From: Escherichia coli
GTDB taxonomy: Bacteria > Pseudomonadota > Gammaproteobacteria > Enterobacterales > Enterobacteriaceae
Strand: one strand, 5' to 3'
Assembly (NCBI RefSeq): GCF_029227855.1
Contig: NZ_CP074356.1
DNA length: 64,000 nt
Numbering within the stretch: the first letter of the stretch is position 1; each line of letters opens with the position of its first letter. The notes beneath the pieces are model-generated. The model worked only from the letters and a program-made list of their open reading frames with translations, did no database searches and had not been told where the DNA came from. The translations under genes were made by a program, and so were the position numbers. This document shows positions 2,137-27,535 of this stretch, in pieces.

Positions 2137-4362
2137 ATGCGGTGGATCCTGTTCATCCTCTTCTGCCTGCTGGGCGCACCTGCCCACGCGGTATCCATAC
2201 CCGGCGTTACAACCACAACGACAACGGACTCAACGACTGAACCGGCCCCGGAACCGGATATCGAACAAAAAAAAGCGGCCTATGGCGCACTGGCGGATGT
2301 GCTGGATAATGACACCTCGCGTAAAGAGTTGATCGACCAGTTGCGCACCGTCGCCGCTACGCCCCCTGCGGAACCGGTACCAAAGATCGTGCCGCCGACG
2401 CTGGTTGAAGAGCAAACCGTGCTGCAAAAGGTCACCGAAGTCAGCCGCCATTATGGTGAAGCCCTTTCCGCCCGCTTCGGGCAACTTTATCGCAATATCA
2501 CCGGCTCCCCGCATAAGCCGTTTAATCCACAAACCTTCAGCAATGCGCTGACCCATTTTTCAATGTTAGCGGTATTAGTGTTTGGTTTTTACTGGCTGAT
2601 TCGCCTGTGCGCACTTCCGCTGTATCGCAAAATGGGCCAGTGGGCGCGGCAAAAAAATCGTGAGCGCAGTAACTGGCTGCAGCTTCCGGCGATGATTATC
2701 GGGGCGTTTATTATCGACCTGCTGTTACTGGCACTGACATTATTTGTCGGTCAGGTTTTAAGCGACAACCTGAATGCGGGCAGTCGCACCATCGCTTTCC
2801 AACAAAGTTTGTTTCTCAACGCCTTTGCCCTGATTGAATTTTTCAAAGCTGTACTACGCCTGATTTTTTGCCCAAACGTGGCGGAACTGCGCCCGTTCAC
2901 GATTCATGACGAGACCGCCCGTTACTGGAGCCGTCGCCTGAGCTGGTTAAGCAGCCTGATTGGCTATGGCCTGATTGTCGCCGTGCCGATTATCTCTAAT
3001 CAGGTGAATGTACAGATAGGTGCGCTGGCGAACGTCATCATTATGCTGTGCATGACCGTCTGGGCGTTGTACCTGATCTTTCGTAATAAAAAAGAGATTA
3101 CCCAGCATTTGCTCAACTTCGCGGAGCATTCGCTGGCCTTTTTCAGCCTGTTTATCCGCGCCTTTGCGCTGGTGTGGCACTGGCTGGCAAGTGCCTATTT
3201 TATCGTGCTGTTTTTCTTTTCGTTGTTCGATCCGGGCAACAGCCTGAAATTTATGATGGGTGCAACGGTGCGCAGCCTGGCGATTATTGGTATCGCAGCA
3301 TTTGTTTCCGGTATGTTTTCCCGCTGGCTGGCGAAAACCATCACCCTCTCGCCACATACTCAGCGTAACTATCCGGAGCTGCAAAAACGGTTGAATGGCT
3401 GGCTGTCGGCGGCGCTGAAAACGGCGCGTATTCTGACAGTCTGCGTGGCGGTAATGCTGCTGTTGAGCGCATGGGGATTGTTCGATTTCTGGAACTGGCT
3501 GCAAAACGGTGCGGGGCAGAAAACCGTAGATATCCTGATCCGTATCGCACTCATTCTTTTCTTCTCGGCGGTTGGCTGGACAGTGCTCGCCAGTTTGATC
3601 GAAAACCGGCTGGCTTCGGATATTCATGGCCGCCCGCTACCCAGCGCCCGTACGCGTACCCTGCTGACGCTGTTTCGTAACGCGCTGGCGGTGATTATCA
3701 GTACCATCACCATCATGATTGTGTTGTCGGAAATCGGCGTTAATATCGCGCCATTGCTGGCAGGTGCCGGGGCATTAGGTCTGGCTATCTCTTTTGGTTC
3801 GCAAACGCTGGTGAAAGATATTATCACCGGGGTATTTATTCAGTTTGAAAACGGCATGAACACTGGAGATTTGGTTACTATCGGGCCGTTGACCGGTACT
3901 GTGGAACGGATGTCGATTCGCTCCGTGGGCGTGCGTCAGGATACCGGGGCGTATCACATCATTCCGTGGTCTTCGATAACTACCTTTGCTAACTTCGTCC
4001 GCGGCATTGGTTCGGTGGTGGCAAATTACGATGTTGATCGCCATGAAGATGCTGATAAAGCCAATCAGGCACTGAAAGATGCGGTAGCTGAATTGATGGA
4101 AAACGAAGAAATTCGCGGGTTGATTATCGGTGAACCGAACTTTGCCGGGATTGTCGGCTTAAGCAATACCGCATTTACACTGCGTGTTTCGTTCACCACG
4201 CTGCCACTCAAACAGTGGACGGTCCGCTTTGCCCTCGACAGCCAGGTGAAAAAACATTTCGACCTGGCGGGTGTTCGCGCGCCTGTACAGACTTATCAGG
4301 TGCTGCCTGCTCGGGGCGCGGCCCCGGCTGAACCGCTGCCGCCGGGGGAGCCAACGCTTTAA
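2137..4362 (+). CDS. ybiO: MscS-family mechanosensitive channel
   Basis: 750-aa ORF; internal ATG at 2137 preceded by GGAGGA gives the 741-aa YbiO ([18 protein letters not shown] signal-like N-terminus); conserved MscS core in the C-terminal part. Confidence 0.9.
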
Positions 4363-11232: not shown

Positions 11233-11311
<79 letters not shown>

Positions 11312-11317
11312 AAAGAA

Positions 11318-12280
<963 letters not shown>

Positions 12281-12307
12281 TTACGACTCCTTACCTGACT
12301 CACATCA

Positions 12308-14458
12308 TTAACGCCGCCGACGGCGTGGGGATTTCGTTTTTTCTTTCTTTTTAACTATACCTTCAGGGACTTCCGGTTGCTCTATCGGAAATACCGGTAA
12401 TGCATCCAGTAGCCGCTTGCCGTAGTTTTTGGTGAGCAAGCGTTTATCGTAAATCACCACTTCGCCCCAGCAACCGTGGCTTCGAATCAGTCGCCCAACC
12501 TGCTGAATCAGGTTAAACGAGGCGCTCGGCAGGCTTTGCACCTCAAACGGATAGCGGTTGAGGCTTTTCAGCCATTCCCCTTCGGTGATCACCACCGGGC
12601 TGTCGATGGGCGGAAAAGCGATTTTGTGGATATGCACCTGGCTGAGCAGATCACCTTTCAAATCAAGCCCTTCGGCAAATGACTGTAAGCCCACCAGCAC
12701 GCTGCGCTCACCGTTGGCGACGCGTTTGCGGTGCAGTTCAACTAAACGGTAACGCGGCTGATCGCCCTGCACCAGCAACATCAGACGTAAATCCGTCACA
12801 TAATCGAGAAAGCGCTGCATCGCCCGTCCGCTGGCAAACAGTACCAACATACCGAGATGTTTTTTGCTCTCCACCTGCTCACGGAAAAAGGCCGCCATTT
12901 CGGCAATATGCTGCTCTTCGTTGTCGAGGGAAGGCTCAACGCGCATCCGGGGAATAACAATTTTGCCCTGTTCGCAGTGGTTGAAGGGGGAATCCAGCGC
13001 CACAAAACGGTCGCCCGCTTTCTCTTTCAGACCACTCATCTCCTGCAAACGCGAAAAACTATTCAGCGAACGCAAGGTTGCGGAGGTGACAATAATGTGC
13101 GGAATACTGCGCCACAGCAGCCTTTCCAGCTGATCGCTGACACGTATCCCCACGCAGTGAAACCAGAGATGCAGTTGCCCTTCGCGCTCTTCCCGCGTCG
13201 CCCATTTGGTCACCGGCGCACCGGAAGATTGCGCCAGAGACGCCAGCCGCCAGAGTTTGCTTTGCGCCTCGAACATCCCCAACGCGCGGTTCATCTGCAA
13301 AATCAACCGATGCAGGCGTACAATGTCATGGCTGCCGGTTTTCTCACTTAAATCGTTAAGAAATAACTCCGCCAGACCACGCAGCATCTCGGTGAGTTTT
13401 GCCAGCCGCTGGCAGATCTCCAGCACTTCATCAGGCAGTTCGCCCATCGCAAAACGGTGCTCTGCCTCCTGCCCGGCAGGCATGTAGAGATTGAGAATGT
13501 TGTTTAACGAGGCGATAAGCTCATACAACTCTTCACAATGCGCATTCAAACGTTCAGGGATCGCCAGCGGTGGGATGGTCTTCGGGCGAAACTGCTCCGT
13601 GCAGGTAGCGACCAGTTTCGTGAACAAGTCCAGCTGTAGCCGATACCACGACGCGGTGATTTCGGCGCTCATCTCCAGCGCATCCCGCGCCACATCTGGC
13701 AGGTGATGACCTTCGTCCAGCACCAGCAGCAGATTTTTCGGGTCAGGCAGTACGGCTTCGCTTTCCATCGCCGCCATCACCAGCGCATGGTTTGCCACCA
13801 CCACTTCCGCTTCCTGAATCTCCCGACGAGCAACAAAAAACGGGCATTCACGATAGTAGTAACAGTTACGGTTGAGGCAGCTGGCTTTGTCGGTACTCAA
13901 ACGACGCCAGAGATCATCATCTATAGCGATATCCGTATGATCGCGCAGACCATCCCATTTATAAGTGTCGAGATCGCCCTTCAACTTTGCACAACGCTTT
14001 TGCTCTTCCTGATTGTTCGGCGTCAGCTCGTCGTCAAGAAACGCCAGCAGATCCTGTTGCGTGGGCTCAGTGCTGGCAAGCGCCGTCAGATTACGCGGGC
14101 AAACGTAGCGCCCACGCCCAAAAGCGGCAGTGAATTTAAGATCGGGAATGATCTTTTTCAGCAGTGGCAAATCTTTGCTGTAGATCTGATCCTGCAATGC
14201 TACGTTGGCGGTACTCACCACCAGCGTTTTTTGCTCTTCGCGGGCAATGGCGATACCGGGGATCAAATAGGAGAGCGTTTTCCCAACGCCGGTGGGGGCT
14301 TCAATCGCCAGATGCCGCCCTTCTTCTCCGGCCAGCGTTTTGGCGACGTCCGCAATCATCTGCCGCTGCGGCGCACGGGGAATAAAGTCGGGGATCTGTT
14401 CCTGAAGCGCCTTATACCAGGCGGCAATTTGCGCTTTAAGCGCGGCGGTTAATGCCAT
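12308..14458 (-). CDS. dinG: ATP-dependent DNA helicase DinG
   Basis: 716-aa ORF with DEAH motif (VLDEGHH) and Walker A (GVGKT); length matches DinG. Confidence 0.95.
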   Translation of the reverse strand: MALTAALKAQIAAWYKALQEQIPDFIPRAPQRQMIADVAKTLAGEEGRHLAIEAPTGVGKTLSYLIPGIAIAREEQKTLVVSTANVALQDQIYSKDLPLLKKIIPDLKFTAAFGRGRYVCPRNLTALASTEPTQQDLLAFLDDELTPNNQEEQKRCAKLKGDLDTYKWDGLRDHTDIAIDDDLWRRLSTDKASCLNRNCYYYRECPFFVARREIQEAEVVVANHALVMAAMESEAVLPDPKNLLLVLDEGHHLPDVARDALEMSAEITASWYRLQLDLFTKLVATCTEQFRPKTIPPLAIPERLNAHCEELYELIASLNNILNLYMPAGQEAEHRFAMGELPDEVLEICQRLAKLTEMLRGLAELFLNDLSEKTGSHDIVRLHRLILQMNRALGMFEAQSKLWRLASLAQSSGAPVTKWATREEREGQLHLWFHCVGIRVSDQLERLLWRSIPHIIVTSATLRSLNSFSRLQEMSGLKEKAGDRFVALDSPFNHCEQGKIVIPRMRVEPSLDNEEQHIAEMAAFFREQVESKKHLGMLVLFASGRAMQRFLDYVTDLRLMLLVQGDQPRYRLVELHRKRVANGERSVLVGLQSFAEGLDLKGDLLSQVHIHKIAFPPIDSPVVITEGEWLKSLNRYPFEVQSLPSASFNLIQQVGRLIRSHGCWGEVVIYDKRLLTKNYGKRLLDALPVFPIEQPEVPEGIVKKKEKTKSPRRRRR

Positions 14459-14472
14459 GAGAAAACCTGAAA

Positions 14473-14492
14473 TACTGTATAAACAGCCAATA
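14473..14492. promoter_or_regulatory. LexA (SOS) box of dinG
   Basis: tactgtataaacagccaata is the reverse complement of the known non-canonical dinG SOS box TATTGGCTGTTTATACAGTA, 15-34 bp upstream of the dinG ATG. Confidence 0.7.
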
Positions 14493-14628
14493 TTGTGGCA
14501 TTTTTCGGTTTTCAGGGGTAATGGTTTTTCTGTTTCTGGAAAGCGGCTCGCAATAACGTTTTCCGGATGTGAAGTTTTCTCGCGGCAGAAGAAACATCAT
14601 TGTGCAGCAAAAGACATTGTACATCAGC

Positions 14629-14910
14629 TTATTCCGCTGGCGGCCATTGCAGAGCGGTATGTAAAACACGCAGTACCGAGAGCGTATCGCCCTCCACTTG
14701 ATAGACAAGCACATAATGCGGCCTGACAACGGCTTCATGTGTACCAGCGACTCGTCCGGCCCGGTACATCTCCGGGCGTTCACAGGCCTGTTCCGCAATG
14801 GCTTCAAATTGATTATCAAGGGCTATTGCCGCTAGCGGATTATCTTTACTGATGTATTCCATGATTTGCTCCCTGTCAGACAGGGACATTGGCTTCCATT
14901 CCAGACGCAT
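14629..14910 (-). CDS. ParE/RelE-superfamily toxin-like protein (93 aa)
   Basis: MRLEW…IAEQACERPEMYRAGRVAGTHEAVVRPHYVLVYQVEGDTLSVLRVLH shows the ParE pattern seen in Caulobacter ParE1 (aligned by eye from memory); start overlaps the upstream gene stop as TAATG. Confidence 0.85.
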   Translation of the reverse strand: MRLEWKPMSLSDREQIMEYISKDNPLAAIALDNQFEAIAEQACERPEMYRAGRVAGTHEAVVRPHYVLVYQVEGDTLSVLRVLHTALQWPPAE

Positions 14911-15350
14911 TAATCCCCCTTCAGCAAGGCTTTTTTACGGGCAGCAAATAGACTTTTGGCCTCTTCATGAGAGAGTGCCGGGCGTGGATCGTCAATGGCG
15001 GCCTGCACCTGCTCTCGAAACCAGGCATCATACGCGGCAGCTTCATGAGCTCGTTTTAATGCCTCAGCCCTGTCTGGTCGGGTCGTTTTCTTCTGACCGT
15101 CCGGGTCGTAATTAGAGGCGTCGACTTCAAACCGGGCAATACCAACATCTTTCAGGTAGTTGACAACCGTTTCCAGCCGTTTGAACAGGCGGATTTGCCG
15201 ACTGCGTTGTGCTGCAAGAGGCCGTTCAGTGTGGCCGTATTTCACGGTCAACGACCAGCCTCCCTGGGTGCCAATAACGTGTGCTGCATCCACTACGCCA
15301 GATTCAACCAGTTTATGTAAGGTTGAGTGATCGATCGTTTCTGGTGCCAT
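14910..15350 (-). CDS. Putative cognate antitoxin / partner protein (146 aa) with unrecognised N-terminal region
   Basis: ORF with AAAGAGG RBS about 10 nt upstream, translationally coupled to the ParE-like gene; only one Met; C-terminal charged helical tail (DAWFREQVQAAIDDPRPALSHEEAKSLFAARKKAL); family not assigned. Confidence 0.6.
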   Translation of the reverse strand: MAPETIDHSTLHKLVESGVVDAAHVIGTQGGWSLTVKYGHTERPLAAQRSRQIRLFKRLETVVNYLKDVGIARFEVDASNYDPDGQKKTTRPDRAEALKRAHEAAAYDAWFREQVQAAIDDPRPALSHEEAKSLFAARKKALLKGD

Positions 15351-15377
15351 AATGCGCTAACCTCTTTGTATACAGCA

Positions 15378-15420
15378 TGCAATTTATAATTAAAGATAGA
15401 GCAATTAATAATAAATTGCA
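15378..15420. promoter_or_regulatory. Promoter/operator-like inverted repeats upstream of the toxin-antitoxin cassette
   Basis: tgcaatttat (15378-15387) and ataaattgca (15411-15420) are perfect 10-bp inverted repeats; an inner gcaatt-N7-aattgc palindrome lies in an AT-rich stretch with a TATAAAT-like -10 on the minus strand. Confidence 0.35.
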
Positions 15421-15506
15421 GCACCTTGATCGTAAATTGCCCAGGATAAAATTGCGGTAGAAAGAGACTTGTTGCGAAGATGCCGGGCATCGCCCGGCAT
15501 AAAAGA

Positions 15507-16871
15507 TTACTGCGCAGCGGCAGGTTTACGCGGACGGCGGCGGCGTTGTTGTTCGCCTGCCGGTTTGGCATCGCCAAGACGACGAGATGGTTTTTCTGCA
15601 GGCTTCGCGCTCGCAGATTTTGCGCCACCTTCAGCGCGGCGTGGTTGCTGTTGACCGCGACCACCACCTTGCCCACGACCGCCGCCGCCACGTTGCTGGC
15701 GACCGTTCTGGATTGGTTCGGCTTTGATTGACGGGTCCGGCTCATAGCCCGGAATCGCAATGCGCGGGATCTCTTTTTTCAGCAGTTTTTCGATATCACG
15801 CAGCAGTTTGTGTTCATCAACACACACCAGCGACAACGCTTCACCGGTAGCAGCCGCACGACCGGTACGCCCGATACGGTGAACATAATCTTCCGGTACG
15901 TTTGGCAGTTCATAGTTGACCACGTGCGGCAACTCTTCGATATCCAGACCGCGCGCAGCGATGTCAGTTGCCACTAGTACACGAATATCGCCCGATTTAA
16001 AATCAGCCAGCGCACGGGTACGCGCACCTTGCGATTTATTGCCGTGGATCGCCGCACTGCGGATGCCATCTTTATTGAGCTGTTCAGCCAGATGGTTAGC
16101 GCCATGTTTGGTACGGGTAAACACCAGCACCTGCTGCCAGTTCCCTTTCCCAATCATGTGCGACAACAATTCGCGTTTGCGTTTCTTATCAACAAAGTGA
16201 ACATGCTGGGTCACCTGATCAGACGCGGTATTGCGGCGTGCCACTTCGATTTCCAGCGGGTTGTGCAACAGTTTTTCCGCCAGAGCTTTAATATCGTCAG
16301 AGAAGGTCGCGGAGAACAACAGGTTCTGGCGCTTCGCAGGTAGTTTTGTTAACACGCGACGGATATCGTGGATAAAGCCCATGTCGAGCATGCGGTCAGC
16401 TTCATCGAGGACGAGGATTTCAACCTGATCCAGCTTCACCGCATTCTGATGTTCCAGGTCCAGCAGACGTCCCGGCGTTGCAACCAGCACATCAACGCCG
16501 CCGCGCAACTTCATCATCTGCGGGTTAATGCTGACACCGCCAAACACCACCAGCGAACGAATGTTCAGGTATTTGCTGTAATCACGGACGTTTTCGCCAA
16601 TCTGCGCCGCCAGTTCACGGGTCGGGGTAAGAATGAGCGCACGTACCGGACGACGCCCTTTGGCGTGCGGCTGGCGAGTGATCAGGTGTTGCAACAGCGG
16701 CAGCGTAAAGCCCGCTGTTTTGCCGGTGCCAGTCTGGGCGCTAGCCATCAGGTCGCGGCCTTCCAGCACCGCAGGGATCGCCTGCTGCTGAATAGGGGTG
16801 GGTTCACGGTAACCCTGCTCGGCAACGGCGCGCAGGATATCAGGGCTTAAACCCAAAGAATCGAAAGACAT
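15507..16871 (-). CDS. rhlE: ATP-dependent RNA helicase (DEAD-box)
   Basis: 454-aa ORF with DEAD motif (VLDEADRM), Q-motif, and a Gly/Arg-rich basic C-terminal tail; matches RhlE. Confidence 0.95.
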
Positions 16872-21634: not shown

Positions 21635-22741
21635 ATGTTTCATCGCTTATGGACGTTAATCCGCAAAGAGTTGCAGTCGCTGCTGCGCGAACCGCAAACC
21701 CGCGCAATTCTGATTTTACCCGTGCTGATTCAGGTGATCCTGTTCCCGTTCGCCGCCACGCTGGAAGTGACCAACGCCACCATCGCCATCTACGATGAAG
21801 ATAACGGCGAGCACTCGGTAGAACTTACTCAACGTTTTGCCCGCGCCAGCGCCTTTACCCATGTGCTGCTGCTGAAAAGCCCGCAGGAGATCCGCCCGAC
21901 CATCGACACACAAAAGGCGTTACTACTTGTGCGTTTCCCGGCTGACTTCTCGCGCAAACTGGATACCTTCCAGACCGCGCCGTTGCAGTTGATCCTCGAC
22001 GGGCGTAACTCCAACAGTGCGCAAATTGCCGCCAACTACCTGCAACAGATCGTCAAAAATTATCAGCAGGAGCTGCTGGAAGGAAAACCGAAACCCAACA
22101 ACAGCGAGCTGGTGGTACGCAACTGGTATAACCCGAATCTCGACTACAAATGGTTTGTGGTGCCGTCGCTGATCGCCATGATCACCACTATTGGCGTGAT
22201 GATCGTCACTTCACTTTCTGTTGCCCGCGAACGTGAACAAGGTACGCTCGATCAGTTACTGGTTTCGCCGCTCACCACCTGGCAGATATTCATCGGCAAG
22301 GCCGTACCGGCATTAATTGTCGCCACCTTCCAGGCCACCATTGTGCTGGCGATTGGTATCTGGGCGTATCAAATCCCCTTCGCCGGATCGCTGGCGCTGT
22401 TCTACTTTACGATGGTGATTTACGGTTTATCGCTGGTGGGATTCGGTCTGTTGATTTCATCACTCTGCTCGACACAACAGCAGGCGTTTATCGGCGTGTT
22501 TGTTTTTATGATGCCCGCCATTCTCCTTTCCGGTTACGTTTCGCCGGTGGAAAACATGCCAGTATGGCTGCAAAACCTGACGTGGATTAACCCTATTCGC
22601 CACTTTACGGACATTACCAAGCAGATTTATTTGAAGGATGCGAGTCTGGATATTGTGTGGAATAGTTTGTGGCCGCTACTGGTGATAACGGCCACGACAG
22701 GGTCAGCGGCGTACGCGATGTTTAGACGTAAGGTGATGTAA
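21635..22741 (+). CDS. ybhR: ABC-2 family transporter permease
   Basis: 368-aa ORF matching YbhR. Confidence 0.9.
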
Positions 22742-23113
22742 CTTCTTATCTTTCGCCAGCAAAGACACTACCGCCGGGCCGGCAAGGATTGCCAGCCCTG
22801 CAATTGCCAGCAAAAAGTTGTTTTCCAGTACGCGGGACAACAGCCACAGCACAATCAGCGCTGCGCCAAAATACCAGGTCGTGGTCAGCTCTTCCAGCAC
22901 GTCTGCCACCTCACGCCAGCGTTGCTCGGGGTGGCGCTGAAACACCAGCATCATCACTACCGTGACACAATACAGTGCGCATAATCCCACACCGACGTGA
23001 ACCAGAGTCTTACTCATCCAGCCCACCACCAGCAGCGCCACTACCAGTAAATGCAACATAATCTGCCAGCAACTTAGACCCGTTGCGACACGAACACGTT
23101 GTTGCCACTTCAT
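22703..23113 (-). CDS. ybhQ: Inner membrane protein YbhQ
   Basis: 136-aa hydrophobic ORF; 3' end overlaps ybhR by 39 nt on the opposite strand. Confidence 0.85.
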
Positions 23114-26830: not shown

Positions 26831-27535
26831 TTAACGGCGGTTGCCGAAGATCCGCAACAACATCAGGAACAAGTTGATGAAGTCCAGATACAAGGTTAAC
26901 GCGCCAAGAATGGAATATTTGCGCAGGTTCGACGTGTCGCGGGTATCAATCTGCTCACCCATATTTTTCAATTTCTGAGTGTCATACGCCGTCAATCCGA
27001 CAAAGACAATCACGCCGATGTAGGTAACTGCCCACATCAATGCTTCGCTTTTCAGCCAGAAGTTGACCAGCGATGCCAGCACAATGCCGATTAACGCCAT
27101 AAACAGCATATTGCCAAAGCCGCTTAGATCGCGCTTCGTGGTGTAACCGTACAGGCTCATTGCGCCAAACATCCCGGCAGTAACGACGAAAGTACTGGCG
27201 ATAGAAGCAGCGGTATAGACAATGAAAATACTGGAAAGCGTAAGACCCGTCAGCGCCGAATAAAGCATAAAGAGCATCGTCGTTACACCTGCGCTCAGCT
27301 TTTGAATCATCGCTGATAACACAATAACCAATGCTAATTGCGCGATGATCAGACCGATTAAAAAGACACGGTTAGTGAACAACAGCTCCATCACGGCCGC
27401 GGAATTAGCCGCATACCAGGCAACAAATGCGGTCAGCAACAAGCCAACGGTCATCCAGCCATAGACTTGCGCCATATAAGTTTGCAAGCCAGCCCGGGGT
27501 TGTACAATTGAATCAGAACGTGGGAATCTGTCCAT
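26831..27535 (-). CDS. ybhL: BAX inhibitor-1 family inner-membrane protein
   Basis: Internal ATG at 27535 with AGGAGA RBS gives 234 aa (MDRFPRSDSIVQPRAG…); seven predicted TM segments. Confidence 0.88.
   Translation of the reverse strand: MDRFPRSDSIVQPRAGLQTYMAQVYGWMTVGLLLTAFVAWYAANSAAVMELLFTNRVFLIGLIIAQLALVIVLSAMIQKLSAGVTTMLFMLYSALTGLTLSSIFIVYTAASIASTFVVTAGMFGAMSLYGYTTKRDLSGFGNMLFMALIGIVLASLVNFWLKSEALMWAVTYIGVIVFVGLTAYDTQKLKNMGEQIDTRDTSNLRKYSILGALTLYLDFINLFLMLLRIFGNRR

Follow-up and report, generated by a model that had tools for sequence, protein, structure and literature searches.

A ParE-type toxin–antitoxin cassette in place of ybiA upstream of the dinG SOS promoter of Escherichia coli: a junction with no strong intrinsic terminator and probably limited read-through

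The dinG-ybiB operon of E. coli is regulated by LexA (PMC10123104). In K-12, REP elements and the divergent ybiA gene lie between rhlE and dinG, and dinG has no comparable co-directional neighbour. In the strain studied here, the minus strand of the window (the whole stretch of DNA that was analysed, 64,000 nt in length) instead reads rhlE, a PaaA2-type antitoxin, a ParE toxin, the dinG LexA box, dinG and ybiB (Table 1). This order raises the question of whether transcription of the toxin–antitoxin (TA) cassette reaches dinG and, if so, whether it matters for the control of the operon. A preliminary description of the locus had placed the cassette directly upstream of dinG and in the same direction, with about 135 bp between the toxin stop codon and the LexA box, and had set this against the divergent ybiA of K-12. 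The open reading frame (ORF) and strand map and the comparison with K-12 bear out this arrangement, and the positions of the stop codon and the LexA box proved exact. The distance between them is 136 nt, and the toxin stop is separated from the dinG ATG by 170 nt. By analogy with K-12, dinG would be under LexA control in this strain as well.

Table 1. Features of the rhlE-dinG-ybiB locus, in window coordinates.
Feature	Position	Strand	Description
rhlE	16871..15507	-	
rhlE hairpin	15480..15500	-	perfect 9-bp stem just past the rhlE stop, ATGCCGGGCGATGCCCGGCAT; common to K-12
Replacement segment	14558..15478	-	921 bp; TA cassette, promoter and 3' tail, in place of REP elements and ybiA
Cassette promoter and operator array (predicted)	15378..15455	-	promoter-like site, inverted repeat, repeat motifs
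Antitoxin gene	14910..15350	-	146 aa; N-terminal part of ~85 aa and C-terminal PaaA2 toxin-binding motif
ParE-family toxin gene	14629..14910	-	93 aa; stop TAA at 14631-14629
Sole terminator-like candidate	14606..14650	-	irregular 37-nt hairpin 14650..14614 over the toxin stop, then CTTTTGCT at 14613..14606
Cassette-borne 3' tail	14558..14628	-	71 nt, non-coding; most variable part of the locus
Candidate Rho utilisation zone	14497..14592	-	C-rich, G-poor, weakly structured untranslated RNA
Retained ancestral ybiA/dinG regulatory spacer	14459..14557	.	99 bp, 100% identical to K-12
Predicted dinG promoter	14474..14501	-	ATGCCA 14501..14496, 16-nt spacer, TACAGT 14479..14474; overlaps the LexA box
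dinG LexA operator	14473..14492	-	TATTGGCTGTTTATACAGTA; 20-mer identical to K-12
Predicted ybiA promoter, orphaned	14467..14496	+	CTGAAA 14467-14472, 18-nt spacer, TATTGT 14491-14496
dinG	14458..12308	-	716 aa, intact; ATG at 14458
ybiB	12280..11318	-	with dinG, the downstream SOS operon (11318..14458)
First credible intrinsic terminator downstream of rhlE	11275..11306	-	after ybiB; hairpin GCCGGATGAGCCATGTCATCCGGC then TTTTACCC

Both the domain matches and the gene overlap identify the cassette as a likely type II TA module of the ParE/PaaA2 type. The toxin, of the ParE/RelE fold, matched Pfam ParE_toxin (PF05016) above the cutoff, with an E-value of 1.2e-13, and among solved structures it comes closest to ParE2 of E. 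coli O157:H7 (5cw7_B, E 1.7e-6, residues 5–90). The antitoxin matched Pfam PaaA2 at residues 104–130 (E 2.1e-10, above the cutoff) as well as the PDB entries for PaaA2, 3zbe and 5cw7 (E 2e-4), and its stop codon is overlapped by the start of the toxin gene (TAATG at 14910). The PaaA2-like part comprises only residues ~100–140 of the antitoxin. The N-terminal ~85 residues matched no Pfam family, and searches of Pfam and NCBIfam recognised no family with a DNA-binding fold in this domain; a sub-threshold match to the NCBIfam “ParC family partition-associated protein” covered residues 6–83 (33 bits, compared to a cutoff of 95). An AlphaFold model of the domain, made with 10 sequences, reached a pLDDT of 60, a value too poor to support a fold search.

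The toxin aligns with ParE2 of the PaaR2-PaaA2-ParE2 system of O157:H7 (5CW7, 3ZBE), and the antitoxin C-terminus aligns with the toxin-binding region of PaaA2. However, sequence identity to that system is low, and there is no paaR2 gene in the cassette. O157:H7 PaaA2 has 71 residues, and the antitoxin here has 146 (Table 1), with an extra N-terminal domain that PaaA2 does not have; this domain may take the role of the separate PaaR2 regulator. The O157:H7 system is also located in a cryptic prophage, whereas the present cassette sits in the core chromosome. Over-expression of ParE2 induces the SOS response (PMC8630535), and since ParE2 is the nearest relative of the toxin with a solved structure, toxin release would be expected to raise dinG expression through LexA anyway.

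Alignment with K-12 places the interval 14459–14628, between the toxin and dinG, at what is evidently the right-hand junction of a gene replacement. The alignment stops at 15479/15478, just past the rhlE hairpin, and restarts at 14558/14557, at a distance of 99 nt from the dinG ATG. The segment between these points takes the place of ~700 bp of K-12 sequence, and the part that was lost includes the ybiA start codon. Of 5426 complete E. coli genomes, 324 (~6%) carry the segment, always on the chromosome and in single copy, and many of the carriers seen are human isolates. Allele A, which is at least 99% identical to the window, accounts for 236 of these genomes, while the other 88 carry versions that are 95–99% identical (allele B and variants). 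Alleles A and B differ by ~3.7% over the whole segment. A literature search found no description of this cassette at the rhlE-dinG position.

The junctions are identical across the cassette alleles and in Escherichia whittamii, in which the species representative (Sa2BVA5; locus 2350–3520) has the cassette in the equivalent position. Between E. whittamii and the window, identity is ~97% over the aligned interval that surrounds the cassette, compared to 91–95% for the flanking rhlE and dinG genes. That the cassette interval is closer than its flanks suggests exchange between species, by homologous recombination between Escherichia lineages via the flanking homology. A third state of the locus was seen in E. 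coli 20Ec-P-124 (locus 2705–2902), where a remnant of ybiA is annotated as an incomplete NADAR pseudogene with its N-terminus missing. Altogether, ~3429 genomes have the K-12 type of spacer and 324 have the cassette, the remainder having other forms. With three states of the locus in hand, the rhlE-dinG spacer is evidently a spot that has been remodelled recurrently.

The two sides of the right-hand junction differ greatly in how much they vary. Upstream of dinG, the retained spacer holds the LexA operator and both predicted promoters unchanged from K-12, and the order of dinG and ybiB is also kept; the difference from K-12 is that ybiA and the REP elements are gone, so that the spacer adjoins a co-directional toxin gene rather than a divergent ybiA start. 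These 99 bp are identical in all locus states of E. coli, and the neighbouring genes differ by 2–4%, which indicates that the spacer is under strong constraint. Because the replaced segment ends 99 nt short of dinG, the SOS control region, which serves ybiA and dinG in opposite directions, is apparently intact in full. In the cassette-borne tail on the other side of the junction, 22 of the 71 columns vary among six alleles, compared to 1 of 99 in the neighbouring stretch ahead of dinG. Alleles A and B differ at ~15 of the 71 positions, as counted by hand from the alignment. We also looked for a counterpart of the tail behind the plasmid homologues of the cassette and found none. With a tail this variable and no counterpart behind the plasmid homologues, nothing suggests selection for either a terminator or a read-through element in this stretch.

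An ORF of 127 codons on the minus strand (14436–14819) runs from the 3' half of the toxin gene across the entire spacer and 22 nt into dinG. Its in-frame ATGs, at 14623 and 14599, are without a Shine-Dalgarno sequence, and the first of them is missing from allele B; for these reasons we rejected the ORF as a probable chance occurrence. In strain 7/2, which is otherwise identical, dinG is annotated as frameshifted, which could reflect a real pseudogene or an assembly error. Between ybhL and ybhN, strain 7/2 also has a transposase of the IS200C family next to a hypothetical gene (22622–23080 of its locus), which by offset would correspond to ~26900–27350 of the window.

The preliminary description had seen no hairpin followed by a T tract in 14493–14628, and more systematic searches led to the same result. 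A consensus scan of the minus strand over 14290–15700 found no terminator-like site, a relaxed energy scan within 14493–14628 found no hairpin of −9 kcal/mol or lower with a U tract after it, and an Rfam scan of 14300–15600, with E-values up to 1, found no match. The spacer RNA had no extra structure when folded in comparison with shuffled sequences (z = −0.07). However, the interval considered in the preliminary description begins just past the toxin stop and half-misses the one weak candidate, which straddles the stop codon. The U tract of this candidate, CUUUUGCU, has five U in eight positions, four of them consecutive, and a tail weight of 3.15, compared to 4.2–4.7 for local controls. Its hairpin has an energy of −8.6 kcal/mol in the window allele, or −0.23 per nt, with interior loops and an irregular stem closed by AU and GU pairs. 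The corresponding hairpin has an energy of −6.9 kcal/mol in E. whittamii and −12.1 to −13.5 kcal/mol in the allele B genomes examined, in which substitutions in the 3' arm (GCATTGT for ACAATGT) strengthen it. Strain MRY15-131 is an example of allele B.

The credible terminators in the vicinity, after fiu and ybiB, likewise consist of a hairpin followed by a U run, but their hairpins reach −14.4 to −16.1 kcal/mol over 18–24 nt (−0.67 to −0.80 per nt) and their U tails are better. The candidate is weaker per nt, its stem is less regular and its U-tail weight is lower; no stable, G+C-rich stem-loop was found between the toxin and dinG. By these measures, the window allele is predicted to have no convincing intrinsic terminator, while allele B has what would be a marginal one. 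When the same criteria were applied to neighbouring genes of this region that read in the same direction and lie 40 bp or more apart, 13 of 17 such junctions were also without a canonical terminator. Thus, the absence of one here is common and not statistically remarkable. The sequence comparisons and scans show the anatomy of the locus, where its junctions lie, how well it is conserved and that a strong terminator is lacking. The hairpins of alleles A and B constitute a natural pair for testing termination.

Transcription might also arrive from farther upstream. The hairpin that follows rhlE has an energy of −16.4 kcal/mol and the tail CTTCGC, with a U run before it and none after, and a terminator scan of the junction between rhlE and the antitoxin gene found none. 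In K-12, REP-associated transcript ends are located between rhlE and ybiA (Romero 2014 supplement), and the REP elements that mark these ends downstream of rhlE are absent from the window. Since the hairpin is without a U tract and the REP elements are gone, rhlE transcription may also enter the cassette. The first credible intrinsic terminator on this strand downstream of rhlE is the one after ybiB; its energy of −16.1 kcal/mol is that of the strain 7/2 version, which differs from the window at one loop base (C for T). We also considered whether a terminator could be transferred from the plasmid homologues of the cassette in Klebsiella and Salmonella (~70% identity), but the similarity ends at the toxin stop, and the 3' flanks of these homologues are unrelated and have no consistent terminator.

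In the 170 nt of untranslated RNA that follow the toxin stop, there is more than the length of about 80 nt or more that is expected for Rho. The ratio of C to G in 78-nt windows within 14592–14497 is 1.85–1.92, compared to a median of 1.00 and a 95th percentile of 1.71 for the 64-kb window as a whole, and the C-rich zone is unpaired in the centroid fold. The zone thus has the C-rich, G-poor and weakly structured character of a rut site, and the spacer is a plausible Rho entry site, weakly indicated by its composition. Predictions of Rho sites that are based on composition give many false positives.

The cassette had also been credited with a promoter of its own, and we did find a predicted promoter together with a conserved operator array. 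The promoter-like site consists of a −35-like TTTACG (15436..15431) and a −10-like TATTAT (15413..15408) at a spacing of 17 nt. A 16-nt inverted repeat (15378–15393 and 15405–15420) overlaps the −10, and the array contains five GCAATTT/AAATTGC motifs. The palindrome and the −10 are kept in the plasmid, Erwinia and Xenorhabdus homologues, at an overall identity of ~70%. A promoter embedded in its operator in this way resembles those of autorepressed type II TA operons, and low basal flux is probable for that reason; judging by the operator repeats, the cassette promoter is probably autorepressed. In E. coli GF43, a 22-bp tandem duplication in the operator array (~655–700 of its locus, equivalent to window ~15390–15415) provides an extra copy of ATTATTAATTGC. 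Inspection of the cassette leader by eye turned up a CTGTATAC motif as a possible LexA half-site, which was rejected because it has no ACAG partner at the right spacing.

On the dinG side, a genomic SELEX study with RpoD found that the holoenzyme bound the ybiA-dinG spacer, and lists ATGCCA-16-TACAGT for dinG and CTGAAA-18-TATTGT for ybiA as predicted promoters (PMC3946193). The hexamers of both promoters map within the retained 99 bp: the predicted −10 of dinG is inside the LexA box, and the ybiA hexamers bracket it. Experimentally mapped start sites for dinG and ybiA were sought in transcript-map data, of which the Romero 2014 supplement yielded REP-associated ends only; the hexamers are taken here as predictions. 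The operator itself is the same as that of K-12 dinG and overlaps the promoter. It is asymmetric, with TATTGG in place of TACTGT in its left half, which suggests that it may be only partly occupied and may form a leaky roadblock. In vitro, RNA polymerase is paused by LexA, and in vivo a polymerase that comes from a weak promoter gets past a repressor roadblock in only a few per cent of cases (PMC4132739). The orphaned ybiA promoter, which matches at 8 of 12 positions and is under the scan threshold, faces the cassette and would run antisense into the toxin gene from its 3' end. A terminator scan of the plus strand found none before 15342.

These observations indicate that read-through from the cassette is permitted by the sequence, with an effect that is probably weaker than the preliminary description proposed. 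Our favoured account, which we hold at about even confidence, is that dinG is essentially LexA-controlled and that read-through adds at most a low basal part. Since this allele has no effective intrinsic terminator behind the toxin gene, the spacer would probably be entered by some polymerases that started at the cassette, and perhaps by others coming from rhlE. An autorepressed cassette promoter would keep their flux low, Rho would remove polymerases within the untranslated, C-over-G spacer, and LexA bound to the operator would stall those that remain, so that only a small fraction would yield dinG-ybiB mRNA. With low flux, a Rho-prone spacer and LexA in the path, dinG most likely stays LexA-controlled, and dinG-ybiB would continue to be driven by its own promoter. 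The share contributed by read-through would rise upon derepression of the TA promoter or cleavage of LexA. We infer the promoter activities, the action of Rho, the roadblock and the size of the read-through from sequence.

The preliminary description had suggested that transcripts from the cassette could read into dinG-ybiB and so add a LexA-independent route or occlude the dinG promoter; in the strong form of this reading, read-through would be efficient and the supply of dinG-ybiB mRNA physiologically meaningful. The close, co-directional cassette with no strong hairpin and U tract behind it is consistent with this, as is the unstructured spacer RNA. Furthermore, the dinG ribosome-binding site would be present on a read-through RNA, and E. 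whittamii and two allele groups of E. coli have kept the arrangement as it is. However, the untranslated stretch in between suits Rho, weak promoters pass roadblocks such as the LexA operator poorly, and the operator-embedded TA promoter suggests that few polymerases set out. Any that do must cross the LexA operator, and read-through would be partly gated by LexA rather than independent of it. The tail is also the least conserved part of the locus, which speaks against selection for read-through, and because the allele B hairpin is stronger, read-through would not be a property conserved across the alleles. Together, the plausible Rho entry site, the potential LexA roadblock, the probably autorepressed promoter and the predicted convergent ybiA promoter argue against a strong LexA-independent route, and we consider such a route, or occlusion of the dinG promoter, quite unlikely. 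Alternatively, cassette transcription could end before dinG altogether, by the action of Rho, possibly aided by the weak hairpin over the stop codon and its U4 tract (hairpin plus CUUUUGCU, 14650–14606). The length of the untranslated RNA, a C-to-G ratio of up to 1.92 and the scarcity of structure are in line with this possibility, and many E. coli junctions are without a canonical terminator yet form separate units, as the 13 of 17 junctions without one in this region illustrate. On the other hand, Rho calls from composition are unreliable, the hairpin is weak per nt, and much of the C-rich zone is close to dinG, only ~40–130 nt ahead of its start codon, so that ribosomes loading there could shield the RNA. 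Complete insulation of dinG in this manner seems rather doubtful to us.

The influence could also run in the opposite direction, if the orphaned ybiA promoter fired antisense into the toxin gene and gave rise to an SOS-modulated antisense RNA or to convergent interference. Binding of the holoenzyme to the ybiA-dinG spacer in SELEX and the prediction of the ybiA promoter (PMC3946193) are compatible with such activity, as are the retention of both hexamers on either side of the LexA box and the lack of a plus-strand terminator in front of 15342. The antisense strand of rhlE is a Rho-terminated antisense locus in K-12 (PMC11551753), which is at most weak support, since the source of that RNA is not established. 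However, the promoter is known as a prediction with a modest score, no mapped ybiA start was found in the transcript-map data consulted, and untranslated antisense RNA is normally cleared by Rho. A reverse effect, which would be compatible with the other readings, strikes us as very unlikely. The two directions might even be combined into cross-talk between a ParE-type module and the SOS regulon, in which a derepressed cassette feeds dinG-ybiB once LexA leaves, while the ybiA promoter acts as an SOS-inducible source of antisense RNA. Since relatives of the toxin trigger SOS, this would form a small feedback loop that is absent from K-12-type strains, but we regard it as highly improbable.

TA operons that are co-transcribed with a neighbouring gene are known, as in mazEF-mazG and in dinB-yafN-yafO-yafP, which is under an SOS promoter, and in these cases co-transcription has been demonstrated. 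The present locus resembles them in that a stress or DNA-damage gene has a type II TA pair as its same-strand neighbour and no strong terminator separates the two. In dinB-yafNOP, however, the SOS promoter is upstream of the TA pair, whereas here the TA pair comes first, with the SOS promoter downstream of it, and co-transcription is no more than a possibility. A TA cassette adjoining an SOS promoter is a fresh instance of a known arrangement rather than a new kind.

The evidence points to what is probably an ordinary junction, in which the SOS region has been kept to the base, the tail has drifted freely and read-through is limited. The main value of the analysis is the exact map of the replacement, with its predicted, orphaned ybiA promoter and a pair of cassette alleles whose 3' hairpins differ. 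If read-through were substantial, expression of the DinG helicase and of YbiB would partly escape LexA in ~6% of E. coli. Carriers of the cassette would also be without the NADAR enzyme YbiA and, if true, the combination of read-through and YbiA loss could alter the way in which these strains handle replication–transcription conflicts under stress.
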